Assembly (NCBI GenBank): GCA_036785375.1
Contig: JAWMAR010000293.1
Location: forward strand, 930,001-994,000
Length of the DNA stretch: 64,000 nt
Reading direction: 5' to 3'
Source of the DNA: Leucoraja ocellata
Taxonomy: Eukaryota
Positions 1,101 through 53,203 of the stretch are shown one piece after another. The notes under the pieces are model-generated. The model saw only the letters and a list, made by a program, of their open reading frames with translations, was not told where the DNA came from and made no database searches. The first letter of the stretch is position 1. Every line of letters starts with the position of its first letter. Both the position numbers and the translations under genes were made by a program.

Positions 1101-3356
1101 TTGCTATACTGAATAAGGCGTGAGTGTGTGTGTGCGTGTTAGCCAAAGGCCTTGTCTGCAGGGACAGGACTGAAACATTCTCGACTAGCAGTGCCATCTA
1201 GCACATAAACGGACCCTTTGGCCCACTATGTCCATGCCGTGATAGTCAGCTACATGTCTCCACCAATCTCATTTACCAGTACTGTCGAAGGCCTCCTATG
1301 TATTGGCGATTCCAGCGCTCGACCAGGTATATTTTGAAACCAATGAGAGTACTTTGCCTCCACCACCCACCTACTCGGCCAGTGAGTTCTTATGGTTCTA
1401 CTTTACTTCGCAGTTAGTTTGTCATGGATTTCGTCCAGTACCGGAACACATGGGAAAAGGACGGGGGGTTCAAATCCTGGCCTCCAGCAGTCACGGGGAT
1501 TGTGCTCAGAGGGTTAATTGTCAGATTCACCACGAACGGAACTATGAGATTTCTACTTGCTGAAGACAAAATACATCTTAGTGTAGTCTAGGGACGGGGT
1601 CGGGGGTGAACTGAATGATCAGGCTGGTGCGAGTTTGGTGAAATAGTTACATGGAAGTGGTAGCACGGTTGTAAAATCATAATGTTTCAATCCATATTTA
1701 CTGCGGGGTTTGCTCTGTTTAAAACCGCTTGGCACAAAATTTTGCTGACGGGGTTAAATTTGACCAGTGCACGGGGTGTTTTTGGAGGCGACGGTGCGCC
1801 TGTCCAACGATCATTCGTTAAAGGTCAGTCTGAATTATATTTTTTGTGATTAATAGCCACCAGATGACCGGCTCTGCGTTTCAGTCGCCTCAGCTGGGTT
1901 CCGGTTATAGCCGGGACTTTAACTGCCCAGGTTCTTTCGTTAGAAGTTAATGAGGAGGAAATTAATGAGTTATTGGGAGAGCTGTGATATTGACGAGGGA
2001 TAGTTTTAAGTTTTAAGTTGATGCATTTTGGAAACGAGAGAGTTCTGAAGGAGATGGGGCGCTTTTCCTGTGTAATGGTTAATATCACCAGTGTTACATT
2101 GAGAGACGGGGCTGAAGAGTGTGTGTGTGGGGGGGGGGGGGGGTATTCGTTAACCCCCCCCCCCCCAAAAAAAAAAACCGCCCCCCCCCCACCCCTACCC
2201 ACCAATTAATTTTGGTTAATGTAACATTTGGAAGCAGAACATATATGATTGACAAAGAGTCAGCGAATTTCTACCTGGATTGAAGACCTCATTATGGTCA
2301 TAGAGTCTAACAGCGTGGAAACAGGCCATTCGGCCCAACTTCCCCACACTGGCCAACATGTCCCTACTGCAGTCGTCCCATCCGCCTGCCTTTGGCCATA
2401 TCCCTCCCATCCATGTACCTGTCTTTTTTTTTTAACGTAGCAGTAGTACCTGCCTCAACTACTCGTTCCAACATCTACCACTCTTTGTATGACAAGTTAC
2501 CCCTCAGCTTCTGTTTGCGGCCCCTCTGGTGACCGTATAATCCATTCCTGTAATGTCAGGTCAGTTTATCTAGCTCATCGGTGAACAAACCGCCAGAAGC
2601 TTAGCAGTGGCTCACAGCACCGTAGAATTACTGGGGCAATTCGCCACACCATCTAAACAACTTTGATAAGTTAACGCCCTTGCGGTAAACATTATGCGAT
2701 AATTGTAATTGGGACTGCGGCGTTATTCATTCCTAAAAGGCAAGATACTCGTTGAGGGCTTACTTACTGGATACGCTGTTGTCATTGAGAGTGGGTTGAG
2801 GGGGGTGGGGGGGGGGGGTGAGATGATTCAACGATACATTTCAAAGGGCAATGGATAATGAATTGTGAAAGGATATCTTTGCTTGGCGGCAGAAGGAAAA
2901 ACGGGAGTGGGCCAAAATAGGTCGCTTGTTTCAAAGAACCCCCCCAAAAGCAAAACAGCCTAATAGCCTTTGTTGTTTGATATAGACACGGAGGAATGTG
3001 GGAACTGTGAGAGGAATAGATCGAATAAGTCTCTTGCCCAGAGTATGGGAATCAATAACCAGAGGGCATAGGTTTAAGGTGAGGAGGGCACGATTAAATA
3101 AGAACCTGAGGGGTAATTTTTCATGCAAGAGTGGTAGGTGTTGGAACGAGTAGTTGAGGCAGGTACTATCGCTACCTTTAACAAAAAATAGACAGGTACA
3201 CGGGTGGGACGGGTCTAGAGTGATATGGGCCAAACGCAGACTGGTGGGACGAGTGTGAGGATGTTGGGCCGAATGGCCTGTTTCCTCGCTGTAAAGATTT
3301 TATGACCACAATGAAGTCTTCAGCCCGGGTAGCGGTTCACTGACTCTTTATCAAGC

Positions 3357-3530
3357 ATGTTTAAGAAGGAACTGCAGATGCTGGAAAATCGAAGGTACAC
3401 AAAAATGCTGGAGAAACTCAGCGGGTGCAGCAGCATCTATGGAGCGAAGGGAATAGGCAACGTTTCGGGCCGAAACCGCTCCATAGATGCTGCTGCACCC
3501 GCTGAGTTTCTCCAGCATTTTTGTGTACCT
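3357..3530. mobile_element. PLE-derived foldback (family B)
   Basis: Inverted arms AAAAATGCTGGAGAAACTCAGCGGGTGCAGCAGCATCTATGGAGC and its reverse complement. Flanking direct repeat CTTTATCAA at 3346 and 3529. Confidence 0.8.
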
Positions 3531-4642
3531 TTATCAATCACACCTGGTCTGCTTCAAAATGTTACATTGACCAAAACTAAAAACAGAAAATACCAGAAAC
3601 GTAACCTGCTGATTCGCCGAGTGTTTCTAGTATTTTCGACCTATTTCAGATTTCTGACATCTGAAGTCTTTAATTAACCCGCCTTGGTCTGGGCTGCATT
3701 TTGAGGGGAGGATTTCACCTGTGGTTAAGTGGACGATGTGCCTCCGAGCCGCTCGTTATCTCTCTCTCTTTCTCTCTCTCTTCCCCGTTCTTATCTCTCA
3801 CATTTTTAAATACATCAATAGATCACCTTTCATTCTACGACACTCTCGAGAATTTAGAACTATCTGTGTATATTTAATCCCTTTGTGCCAAATGCTTTAA
3901 TACTCCTTTCTCCTGTGGCGTCCAGTCTGGAGAAAAGTCTATAAGTGTTGTATTAAAAATGCGATAAATGTGCTGCAGTTATTAGAGAGAAGGGCGATTC
4001 CAATTGGTTTGCTTCCATCATTGAAAATGCAAGCAGGAAGTACAGTCCCAATTTCAGAGCCGGATATAAATAATTTTCTATGTCATCATTTAGTTTCACT
4101 CATAGAAGGCAAATCAGGTCGAGTTTATTGTTATATGCATAAGTACTGTGAGGAATAGGTACAATGACAATCTTGCTTGCAGCAGCACCACAGGCACATA
4201 GACACGGACAGACACACAGAAACACATTACACGCAAACAAGTCCCTGTGAAAGGAACTTCAGTGGCAAAAACACAATTTACGCTAGTAAATGCAAGAGAT
4301 GGTTTATCGTTAGACACAGAATGCTGGAGTGACTCAGCAGGACAAGCAGCATCTCTGAAAAGAAGGAATGGGAGATGTTTCAGGTCGAGACCTTTCTGTA
4401 CCTGCTGCCCGATGGTAGCAGCGAGATGAGGCATTGGACCTTGATGAGGATCCTTGATGATAGGTGCCGCAGTTCTTGAGATAGCGCCTCATGTAGATGC
4501 TTTTGAAGGAGGGAACGACTGTACCCGTGATGGACTGGCCTGAGTCTATCACACCCTGTAGACGCTGCATTGGATTTGAATACCAGAATGCAATCAGTCC
4601 GGATACATGAGGGAACCTTGAGTCAGTGGCTGTTTTTAACTG

Positions 4643-4853
4643 TTTAAGAATGAACTTTTTAACTGTTTAAGAAGGAACTGCAGATGCTGGAAAATCGAAG
4701 GTACACAAAAATGCTGGAGAAACTCAGCGGGTGCAGCAGCATATATGGAGCGAAGGAAATAGGCAACGTTTCGGCCCGAAACGTTGCCTATTTCCTTCGC
4801 TCCATAGATGCTGCTGCACCCTCTGAGTTTCTCTAGCATTTTTGTGTACCTTT
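4643..4853. mobile_element. PLE-derived near-perfect foldback (family B)
   Basis: ~75-bp arms centred on GTTTCGGCCCGAAAC. TSD-like GCTGTTTTTAACTG at 4629-4642 and 4854-4867. Confidence 0.85.
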
Positions 4854-51208: not shown

Positions 51209-51301
51209 GTGCGTTGTTGATCAACTGAATTGACTAGTTTATTGTCTCGTGTACTGAGGTTGAGTGAAAAGCCATTTTGTTGCAGTCAGCAGAAGGACAA
51301 T

Positions 51302-51597
51302 ACTGAAGGAGGGTCTCGACCCGAAACGCCGCCCATTCCTTCTCTCCGGAGATGCTCCCTGTCCCGCTGAGTTACTCCAGCATTTTGTGTCAAACATGAT
51401 TATAATCGAAGGTACACAAAAATGCTGGAGAAACTCAGCGGGTGCAGCAGCATCTATGGAGCGAAGGAAATAGGCAACGTTTCGGGACGAAACGTTGCCT
51501 ATTTCCTTCGCTCCATAGATGCTGCTCCACCCGCTGAGTTTCTCCAGCATTTTTGTGTACCTTCGATTTTCCCGCATCTGCAGTTCCTTCTTAAACA
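51302..51597. mobile_element. Adjacent PLE family A tail and family B foldback inserted in a LINE 3' fragment, intron 5
   Basis: CTGAAGGAGGGTCTCGACCCGAAAC tail at 51303-51391, then the foldback flanked by ACATGAT(T/C)ATAATCGA (51394 and 51597). Confidence 0.8.
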
Positions 51598-53203
51598 CAT
51601 GATCATAATCGAGCCATCCACAGTGTACTGCCACACGATAAAGGGAATATTGTGAATTTAGTGCAAGGTAAAGCCAGTAAAGTCTGATCCAAGATAGTCC
51701 GAGGGTCTCCAAATTGGGTAGATAGTAGTTCAGGACTGCCCTCTAGTTGTTGGTAGGCTAGTCTCCATTGTACTTACTTAGAAATGGAGAACCTTTGTTT
51801 AGTGGTGAATTATTTGCCACAGTAATCAAGTCAATGGATATTTTTAAGGCAGAGATGGATATTTTTAATTGGTATGTGTGTCAGGGGTTATGGGGAGAAG
51901 GCAGGAGAATTGGGTTAGGAGGGAAAGACAGATGATTAAATGGTGGGGTAGACTTGATGGGCCGAATGGCTTAATTCTACTCCTATCACTTTTGATCTTA
52001 TGACCTTATGAACCTGGGTGATTTGTTTGGGAAAGGCAGTAAGAGTTCCCAGGGCTTTTCTTGGGGATGTTACTGATTAAATGAGTTATTTTGGTCCAGG
52101 ATTTCCACTTAACTTCCAGTCTATGATTGCATTTGAGCAGGTACTTTGGGGGGGGGAAATCTCTCCCCTCTCCCATGTTGCCCCAGGACACTAAATGGAT
52201 CTCCTGGCTGGGTTTGGAGATTAGGTAAAAGGCAACTTCACCGATTCTTTTATAAAAGAACAAGCTGTAATGTTACCAGTTCTTTTTATCAAAGAACAAA
52301 TGGAGGGATTACACCTGCGGTACACATGTCTCTCAATCCTTCATTTTTCACCCAATAAATCCCCTTTGTGCATCCAAGCATTTTAAGGAACTGCTCCAAT
52401 ATTATATTGGTGGAATCAGCTAGTACAAGTTGTAATGTGCCATGACCATGTTGTGAATGTGTGGAATGAGATGGGGTCATGAGGCCTGCTCCCTGTGCGT
52501 CCCCCCTTTTATGGACACCACCATGACCATCTATAATCTTCTCCAGCTGTCCCAACCTTAGGCAGATATTACTTTTCAAAAGGGATGGGCAGAGGATGAA
52601 GTTGCAAGTTGACAGGCCATGATTAGAACTTTCCTGCCGCAAGACATCTTTGCAATGAACGTATTGCAGTTCTGTACCATCGAATCATAGATTGATACAA
52701 TGTGGAAACGGGCCCTTCAGCCCAACTTGCCCACACTGGCCAACATGTCCCTGCTACACCAGTCCCACCTGTCCATATCCCTCCAAATCTGTCCCATCTA
52801 TGTACCTGTCAAACTGTTTCTTAAATGTTGGGATAGTCCCTGCTTCTCCCGACTCCTCTGCCAGCTTGTTCCATATACCCACCACACTTTGTGTGGAAAA
52901 AGTGGCCTCTCATTTTACTATTAAATTAGATTCCTGTTGTAGAGAGAGTTAATGGGATCGCACGCGAAGCAGCCCAGCTGGGTATGGGTTCCCTGCAGGA
53001 TCACCCAGACTTCAGCCTCTCCTAGCTTCCTCAAAACTGCTTCAAAAGTGGAAGACGTTCTCCCATATTAGAATAGGAATCCTACTCAAGAGGTCCGTGG
53101 AAGCCACTCTAGGTTACCACTCTAACATGGCCCATTATAGTCGAGTAGTCTAGTAATTGAGTTCGGGTTCTGCTCGTTGCTAACATTCATGTCTTGTTCT
53201 TAG

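Follow-up and report, generated by a model that had tools for sequence, protein, structure and literature searches.

Short hairpins built from Penelope-like 3' ends, half of them bracketed by target-site duplications, in a 64-kb stretch of the Leucoraja ocellata genome

Penelope-like element ends in the window

The 64,000-nucleotide stretch of the Leucoraja ocellata genome analyzed here (GenBank assembly GCA_036785375.1, contig JAWMAR010000293.1, positions 930,001 to 994,000; hereafter the window, numbered from its first letter) is rich in short copies of the 3' end of Penelope-like elements (PLEs), many of which are folded into head-to-head hairpins (Table 1). Self-comparison of the window revealed many short repeats, several of them self-inverted. 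Searching with a profile of 29 arms, taken from the younger copies in the window itself, produced 50 matches (E ≤ 0.01) that merge into 31 loci, or 32 once the monomer at 51303 is separated from the adjacent hairpin at 51404; the reversed window gave no profile matches. These loci occupy 5,116 bp, or 8.0 % of the window, at a density of about one locus per 2 kb, and 30 of them lie within 3346-51612, where the initial annotation had counted roughly 20 copies of two related families. That count is adequate for the younger families A and B, which are about 80 % alike, but not for the total, which includes older relatives. Hairpins, as had been noted for many of the copies, make up 18 of the 32 loci and single-arm monomers the other 14. 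The hairpin units are 130-212 bp long, contain no open reading frame (ORF) between the arms, and have the arms in head-to-head (-/+) order in 18 of 18 cases; both arms were recovered by the profile search in 17, the left arm of 11120-11250 being apparent by pairwise alignment only. Read depth in public data, summed over the repeats, exceeds the depth in unique bins by a factor of about 10^5, a figure that hints at abundance and is not a copy number.

Table 1. PLE-derived copies in the window. Arm positions are counted from the predicted hammerhead cleavage site; length and mismatches (mm) of each target-site duplication (TSD) are in brackets. RT, reverse transcriptase; LINE, long interspersed nuclear element; pLTR, pseudo-long terminal repeat; UTR, untranslated region.
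Element	Positions	Strand	Structure	TSD
Family A hairpin	3358-3532	-	tail arm left, -19..+101; tail-less arm right, +13..+67	3346-3357 / 3529-3540 (12 bp, 1 mm)
Family A hairpin	4641-4853	-	apex at 15-nt palindrome of hammerhead stem II (-11)	4629-4642 / 4854-4867 (14 bp, 0 mm)
Family A hairpin	6627-6733	.	eroded; 18-nt unrelated insert at apex	no significant TSD
Family A hairpin	9862-10058	+	apex at -11 palindrome; tail right; private variants common to both arms	9849-9862 / 10055-10068 (14 bp, 1 mm)
Family A hairpin	11120-11250	-	apex at stem III palindrome (-3); tail arm internally deleted	11106-11119 / 11250-11263 (14 bp, 2 mm)
Family A hairpin	16497-16655	.	right arm continues into LINE RT fragment (~16655-17130)	none
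Family A hairpin	51404-51598	+	apex at -11 palindrome; tail right	51394-51409 / 51597-51612 (16 bp, 1 mm)
Family B hairpin	38719-38917	-	tail arm -8..+103; tail-less arm -29..+62	38705-38721 / 38914-38930 (17 bp, 3 mm)
Family B hairpin	42537-42748	+	apex at -30 palindrome; tail right	42523-42536 / 42749-42762 (14 bp, 2 mm)
Family B-related hairpin	43742-43924	-	tail arm -11..+103; short arm -26..+39	43734-43744 / 43919-43929 (11 bp, 1 mm)
Family B hairpin	46420-46560	-	tail arm +22..+102; short arm +4..+66; 3-nt junction microhomology	46405-46419 / 46559-46573 (15 bp, 1 mm; 12-bp exact core at 46408/46562)
Old hairpin	873-1103	-	apex at -30 palindrome; outside 3346-51612	
Old hairpin	9112-9255	-		
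Old hairpin	14692-14895	-	apex at -30 palindrome	
Old hairpin	18764-18990	-	short arm takes in upstream pLTR sequence	
Old hairpin	23828-24015	-		
Old hairpin	34447-34630	-		
Old hairpin	60724-60935	-	apex at -30 palindrome; outside 3346-51612	borderline, 8 bp
Family A tail-less monomer	32773-32862	-		7-bp exact candidate, equalled by 18/1000 random pairs
Family B tail-less monomer	4311-4397	-		
Family B tail-less monomer	5751-5920	+	5' extension common with 7656-7844	
Family B monomer with tail	7656-7844	+	sole copy with complete minimal type I hammerhead	
Family B tail-less monomer	8471-8557	+		weak candidate, score 6.5
Family B monomer with tail	27899-28027	+		
Family B tail-less monomer	51303-51394	+	hairpin 51404-51598 inserted at its 3' end	
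5'-truncated PLE	21722-22147	+	endonuclease C-terminal part, 3' UTR, damaged hammerhead, tail-less end	none found
Longer head-to-head PLE relic	63506-64000	.	outside 3346-51612; ends at window edge	

Origin of the arms

The family A arms are 87-100 % identical to positions 22049-22147, the last ~100 nucleotides of the truncated PLE at 21722-22147, and this segment lies downstream of a remnant of a PLE endonuclease. The remnant (21744-21955) is a frameshifted C-terminal part of the enzyme that starts after the GIY-YIG motif. The earlier claim that the arms match the tail of a PLE fragment was therefore correct, except that the fragment begins past the motif and is not itself GIY-YIG-bearing. 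Although the Pfam search produced no match in the 53-amino-acid endonuclease remnant, positions 21744-21902 match three proteins from Leucoraja erinacea and Rhinoraja longicauda with 65-77 % identity, as befits DNA of a skate, and the endonuclease region of these homologs matches the RT and GIY-YIG proteins P0004-P0008. As in endonuclease-positive (EN+) PLEs, the arms are continuous with the end of a PLE RT-GIY-YIG ORF. The closest homologs (P0002, P0003 and P0005-P0008) carry a zinc finger-like Cys motif in the linker between the RT and the endonuclease, a region not included in the window fragments; a Cys-rich linker is given as characteristic of two clades, Neptune and Nematis (PMC8557442). 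Judged indirectly, by these homologs, the source PLEs appear to be Neptune-like, with the proviso that Nematis shares the Cys motif.

Proteins P0001-P0004, annotated in skates and sharks, fuse PLE endonuclease ends to sequence of the host or of LINEs. Given this chimerism and the read-through of P0004 into the hammerhead region, PLE debris evidently contaminates gene models. When P0004 was used to search metagenome contigs, 121 stretches matched and none was confirmed; exact-motif scans yielded no matches in metagenome contigs and none in viral contigs.

In a motif scan, the full minimal type I hammerhead, with both stem I and stem II, appeared once, at 7707; its core begins at 7712, and cleavage is predicted after 7739. 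At 38821 the core is present but stem I is not. A complete core is thus kept in 2 of the 32 loci, one of them with stem I. The description of the copies as ribozyme-associated accordingly fits their position but little else, given this scarcity of complete cores and the fact that most arms cross the cleavage site. The Rfam search returned 33 matches, all below the gathering score, with no hammerhead model among them and almost all of them to models of microRNAs or other hairpins; we discarded these sub-threshold hits as generic hairpin matches. When folded as RNA, the pLTR ends show no gain in stability over shuffled sequences (z from -0.07 to -0.9). Immediately 5' of the hammerhead core lies a polypyrimidine tract (21960-22053) with a terminal CAG, similar to a 3' splice acceptor, and in Drosophila virilis an intron end has been mapped to a comparable place 5' of the hammerhead core (PMC4209133). 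Two monomers share a 5' extension of about 55 nucleotides (5751-5807 and 7656-7709, 81 % identical) that occurs nowhere else in the window; it could be either a different pLTR or a first exon added by splicing. A 26-codon open frame starting from an ATG is present in family A only and is not beyond chance.

Target-site duplications

Clear TSDs of 11-17 bp (mode 14, with 0-3 mismatches) bracket 9 of the 18 hairpins. They include all five of the pairs named in the initial annotation (at hairpins 4641, 9862, 11120, 46420 and 51404) and four more, at 3358, 38719, 42537 and 43742. The variability of TSD length reported there is genuine, but the range of 9-17 bp has to be corrected to 11-17 bp when mismatches are allowed. 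With one TSD around the whole unit, each of these nine hairpins behaves as a single insertion, as had been proposed. The nine TSD scores are 8.5-14, compared with null 99th percentiles of 7 for random flanks (n = 1000) and 8 for swapped flanks (n = 420), and each is equalled by at most 2 of the 1000 random and at most 4 of the 420 swapped pairs; the scores are not blind because the limits of the elements were placed visually on the alignments. The swapped-flank maximum of 16 most likely comes from the adjacent 51303/51404 pair. For the hairpin 60724-60935, correction of the ends gave an 8-bp exact repeat with a borderline score of 8, whereas flank repeat scoring identified no TSD at the other eight hairpins (6627, 16497 and six old copies). 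Weak TSD candidates were found in two of the eight monomers tested. At the tail end, the TSD and the element overlap by 2-3 nucleotides (CA/ACA) in about six of the nine TSD-bounded hairpins. A preference for AT-rich targets was not seen (55 % in the TSDs and 55 % in the window).

Arm ends, tails and junctions

Two outer arm ends recur, at about +65 and at +101/+103. Exactly one arm carries the tail of ~35 nucleotides in nine of nine TSD-bounded hairpins (p = 0.004 against 50:50); the tail-less arms of eight of these nine end between +59 and +72, and the tail-less monomers stop at this inner site as well. Loose ends of PLE sequence in public contigs of four organisms agree with this picture: they pile up at +103 in all four runs (1,665-1,944 records) and, 35 nucleotides away, at +68 in three of the four (869-932 records). 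A further pile of loose ends, at 7710 (-30), was considered as a fixed 5' end and rejected, as the consensus continues like the family and it is the reference copy that differs upstream. Likewise, 'opposite strand' joints at 7806/7807-7842, which could pass for tail-to-tail junctions, are more plausibly read as contigs running between two different copies.

The inner arm ends are scattered from -43 to +22. Hammerhead cleavage can be rejected as the source of the 5' ends, as most arms include sequence 5' of the cut; the crossing of the cleavage site by most arms implies that the template was uncleaved. By manual count there are at least 11 distinct junctions among the 18 hairpins, in line with the earlier statement that junctions differ per copy. 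That statement holds for most copies but not for all of them: 8 of the 18 apexes fall on three natural hammerhead palindromes (three on the 15-nucleotide stem II palindrome at -11, four on a 9-nucleotide palindrome at -30 and one on stem III at -3), and three family A hairpins (4641, 9862 and 51404) share one apex, at -11, and a core of ~155-165 bp. At the -11 palindrome the centre base follows the tail-less arm in both informative copies. Hairpins 9862 and 51404 also have in common an arm-asymmetric change adjoining the apex (-10; 9944-9945 and 51486-51487). The tail-less arm reaches further 5' in 6 of the 18 hairpins (38719, 43742, 46420, 18764, 34447 and 9112), and probably also in 16497; the tail arm is the longer one in two (3358 and 23828).

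The two arms of one copy share more non-consensus, non-CpG variants than re-paired arms do. In the 17 of 18 hairpins tested (34447 was left out), the count is 4 against 0.72 expected in family A (p = 0.005, 7 pairs) and 22 against 11.7 expected in family B and the older copies combined (p = 0.0001, 10 pairs). Such copy-specific variants common to both arms are expected if every copy had a template of its own, and to that extent the earlier view that the copies look newly folded each time is supported. Nearest-neighbour pairing of arms is weak; only a minority of the arms have their partner as best or equal-best match.

Relation to known PLE architecture

PLE insertions typically combine an inverted 5'-truncated copy, a one-sided tail of 30-40 nucleotides and a TSD, and palindromes at their junctions are common (PMC3846280, PMC8557442, PMC8969392). 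To judge from sequence, the window hairpins display the same features: a head-to-head inverted 5'-truncated copy, a one-sided 30-40-nucleotide tail and a TSD of variable length around the unit. In addition, the motif scan places a putative minimal type I hammerhead within the pLTR. The layout is that described, in the accounts considered here, for EN+ insertions such as Pen2a/Pen2 of Adineta (PMC3846280), the general scheme in Fig. 2 of PMC8557442 and Penelope of D. virilis (PMC2377424), in which an inverted truncated copy and a direct copy lie head-to-head within a single TSD, with the tail on one side and palindromes at the junction. The units described here differ in being only 130-212 bp long with no ORF between the arms, in their density, and in the recurrence of junctions at three hammerhead palindromes. 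Their TSDs of 11-17 bp are also longer than the 8-10 bp described for rotifer PLEs and in the general account of PLE architecture (PMC3846280, PMC8557442).

The same comparison can be extended to the minimal PLE hammerheads dispersed in metazoan genomes (PMC4209133), which, like the window copies, have a minimal type I core in which position 9 is followed by an extra base and stem III is a palindrome of 2 nucleotides, and which occur both as singles and as opposite-strand pairs; pairs separated by 100-700 bp have been attributed to truncated PLEs before. That study, in the portions drawn on here, names no cartilaginous fish and does not analyze TSDs, tails or junctions. The architecture is thus not new, being the known PLE layout with almost no body, and the separate non-coding retroposition mode invoked in the initial annotation is not needed, as the described architecture accounts for the layout (PMC3846280, PMC8557442, PMC4209133). 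The relic at 63506-64000, in which minus-strand pieces of the RT and the endonuclease (63506-63909) face a plus-strand piece comprising the endonuclease end and 3' UTR, is likewise head-to-head, so that the hairpins appear as the short end of a continuum. That they represent single PLE insertion events of this known architecture is highly probable, and this is much more secure than any choice between the two mechanisms, twin priming and fold-back, that would produce such events.

Comparison with other short mobile elements

Like miniature inverted-repeat transposable elements (MITEs), the hairpins are short, hairpin-forming, non-coding and present in high copy number. The resemblance ends there. 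MITEs have symmetric termini, a fixed length and a short fixed flank, none of which is seen in the PLE hairpins: their two ends differ because the tail is one-sided, so that terminal inverted repeats are missing, and both TSD and unit length vary. Their termini match at 6-13 of 20 nucleotides, compared with 17-19 of 20 in a true MITE pair present in the same window, which bears out, within the window, the earlier view that they are not MITEs derived from DNA transposons. The true pair (33803-34015 and 35253-35466, ~214 bp each, in opposite orientations, with long terminal inverted repeats and TAA/TTA flanks) is unrelated to the PLE ends and presumably Harbinger-like.

Non-LTR retrozymes, found also in the one chondrichthyan sampled (bioRxiv 10.64898/2026.07.22.740005), are likewise non-coding, derived from PLE pLTRs and hammerhead-bearing. 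As described there, they form head-to-tail tandem arrays with intact hammerheads, in contrast to the window copies, which are dispersed or head-to-head, with hammerheads that are mostly broken.

Orthologous sites in other organisms

Four public runs, one per organism, were compared over positions 3000-11400. In unique sequence the divergence from the window is ~0 % in one run (X16) and ~1.6-3.4 % in the other three. The contigs listed run into the hairpins at 3358 (three of four runs), 4641 (four of four), 6627 (four of four) and 9862 (three of four), which indicates that these insertions predate the corresponding splits. Near-perfect palindromes of 165 bp persist in organisms that have diverged by ~3 %. 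The contig joints listed are mainly repeat-to-repeat, and no piece among those listed covers the 11120-11250 hairpin. Hairpin 4641-4853 carries at its tail end a tandem duplication of 23 bp (4641-4663) that may postdate the insertion; a contig of one run (X1) has it, and that of another (X3) ceases to match at 4656.

Proposed mechanisms of hairpin formation

In twin priming of L1 elements, two target ends prime on one RNA, which leaves an inverted 5' part inside one TSD. We tentatively favor a comparable process here, at odds close to even: the RT-endonuclease of Neptune-like PLEs may have made the hairpins by twin priming, as insertions with extreme 5' truncation. The proposal starts from what the copies display, namely their anatomy, the TSDs, the one-sided tail, the variants shared between arms and the map of junctions. 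It differs from L1 inversions, whose two parts come from separate, non-overlapping stretches of the RNA, in that the arms here are both copies of almost the same 100 nucleotides, made from two fixed starts.

In outline, the endonuclease would nick both target strands about 14 nucleotides apart. One target 3' end would then prime reverse transcription at an outer start on uncleaved PLE RNA (the tail end, +101/+103), and the other would prime at an inner start about 35 nucleotides upstream (~+65). Both cDNAs would stop after 50-135 nucleotides, around the hammerhead, and their 3' ends would be joined, often via a self-complementary spot in the hammerhead. Each arm would thus be its own cDNA. The template may have been a short 5' end of an mRNA, which, alternatively to stalling of the RT at the hammerhead, might account for the shortness of the copies; the transcript of D. 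virilis Penelope starts within the upstream pLTR (PMC2377424).

Nicking and extension of both strands and the two RT starts are borrowed from another PLE. The protein of the Anolis Poseidon element PAc, studied in vitro, nicks and extends both strands, starts reverse transcription at two sites that bound the tail, with an AC-rich start, and uses RNA with an uncleaved hammerhead (PMC11167929). This element belongs to a different clade, the source PLEs here being Neptune-like by their homologs; in the account considered here no head-to-head products or TSD length are reported for it, and the TSDs in the window are not AT-rich. By analogy with the same work, the coincidence of the ends of tail-less monomers with those of tail-less arms points to an RT start at this site (PMC11167929). 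Furthermore, the six tail-less arms that reach further 5' hold sequence that the cDNA of the tail arm could not have templated. A short arm that ends at an RT start site, often with sequence absent from the tail arm, fits twin priming.

Several observations weigh against this interpretation. Asymmetric junctions may also arise by later deletion of the tip of a symmetric palindrome, and the ratio of six to two does not differ significantly from 50:50. In vitro, the RT start is independent of the strand (PMC11167929), so that the rule of one tail per hairpin needs an extra assumption under twin priming, whereas under fold-back it is automatic. The variants common to both arms fit either mechanism, and subfamily structure or arm-to-arm conversion could contribute to them. 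The loose ends at +68 may partly reflect variants of the reference copy itself, since the consensus starts like the family tail in two of the three runs. Of the four copies with an apex at -30, three take the centre base in the orientation of the tail arm, the fourth being uninformative. The asymmetric change at -10 common to 9862 and 51404 hints at a shared hairpin source. Finally, no empty orthologous site was found among the 32 contig pieces listed, out of far more.

Fold-back is a serious contender, which we rate as a substantial possibility short of an even chance; the foldback origin named in the initial annotation thus survives as one of two candidate mechanisms, twin priming being preferred. 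It holds that a single cDNA snaps back at a hammerhead palindrome and is copied, that the endonuclease trims the copy ~35 nucleotides short before it is joined, and that uneven junctions are later deletions. The strict one-tail rule follows from it more naturally, as do the head-to-head order and the shared arm variants, and it is consistent with the eight apexes at the natural palindromes (-30, -11 and -3), with the centre base at -30, and with the junctions of 3358 and 16497, which lie at a stem common to the RNA folds of both families. In the published accounts, moreover, the tail is ascribed to endonuclease resolution of an intermediate (PMC8557442) and junction palindromes are read as self-priming (PMC3846280). 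Under fold-back, however, the extra 5' sequence in the tail-less arm of 6-7 of the 18 hairpins is not expected, nor is a centre base taken from the tail-less arm in both informative copies at -11, and the common end of tail-less monomers again suggests an RT start at that site. The persistence of long near-perfect palindromes at ~3 % divergence indicates that tip deletion is not obligatory.

A less probable alternative, which we consider improbable though not negligible, is that a few pre-formed hairpin masters were transcribed and re-copied by the PLE enzyme in the manner of short interspersed nuclear elements (SINEs), the variation being due to decay. Non-autonomous PLE derivatives do exist (PMC8557442; bioRxiv 10.64898/2026.07.22.740005), and the three family A hairpins with the same apex and similar core, two of them with the asymmetric change at -10, would be natural descendants of one master. 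Yet the 18 hairpins have at least 11 distinct junctions, the three hairpins with a common apex differ in loop sequence, and 9862 has both-arm variants that the other two do not have. A re-copied unit would also be expected to show variable 5' truncation, whereas the short-arm ends cluster at the monomer end.

Two independent adjacent insertions of monomers, or a later inversion or repair event, are very unlikely: monomers are common (14 of 32) and hairpin 51404 does sit at the end of monomer 51303, but one TSD brackets the unit in half of the hairpins, the head-to-head order is without exception and the arms share variants. Least probable of all, and set aside on the termini and TSD lengths in the window, are DNA-transposon MITE families derived by chance from PLE ends, which would have the size, shape and very high copy number observed but not the variable lengths, the missing terminal inverted repeats, the 11-17-bp TSDs with microhomology or the coexisting monomers with the same ends.

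Returning to twin priming, a broader form of it is conceivable but doubtful, namely that 'strong-stop' twin priming by a dimeric PLE enzyme generates most PLE insertions in skates and sharks. Both strands would be nicked about 14 nucleotides apart and each would have one RT start site; only the 5' RNA end of ~100-135 nucleotides would be copied, twice, and the cDNAs would be fused at hammerhead palindromes. If this were true, the very numerous mini-hairpins would be a direct record of the way in which inverted pLTR, tail and TSD arise in all PLEs, and the process would replace the published ideas of antisense self-priming and endonuclease trimming. The formation of the inverted, tailed ends of PLEs is described as still undefined (PMC8557442). 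Our literature search found no paper on mini-hairpins of skates or on twin priming by PLEs; Repbase, Dfam and subscription papers were outside the search, and names for these families may already exist.

The value of these copies lies in their density and compactness, which make them a large natural data set for PLE insertion. Given that both ends, the junction and the TSD are contained in ~200 bp and that there is about one copy per 2 kb, a skate assembly could be used to weigh twin priming against fold-back on many copies. Unless annotated as PLE ends, about 8 % of the window is at risk of being split into SINE-, MITE- or microRNA-like calls.

Other features of the window

Exons of one gene, which we take to encode a TFAP2-like transcription factor, lie at ~8365-8415 and 11510-11955, the latter encoding a proline-rich peptide; PLE copies, including hairpins 9862 and 11120, are located between them. 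Two LINE fragments, presumably of the CR1 type, are present at 16655-17130 and 10669-10918, and the first is joined to hairpin 16497-16655 via a short microhomology. One contig of run X3 ceases to match at 10670 and continues for 322 further letters, which may represent an empty site of the second fragment. Further inverted-repeat elements with no relation to the PLE families are found at 12852-12975, 13511-13776, 28235-28731 and 61842-62286.

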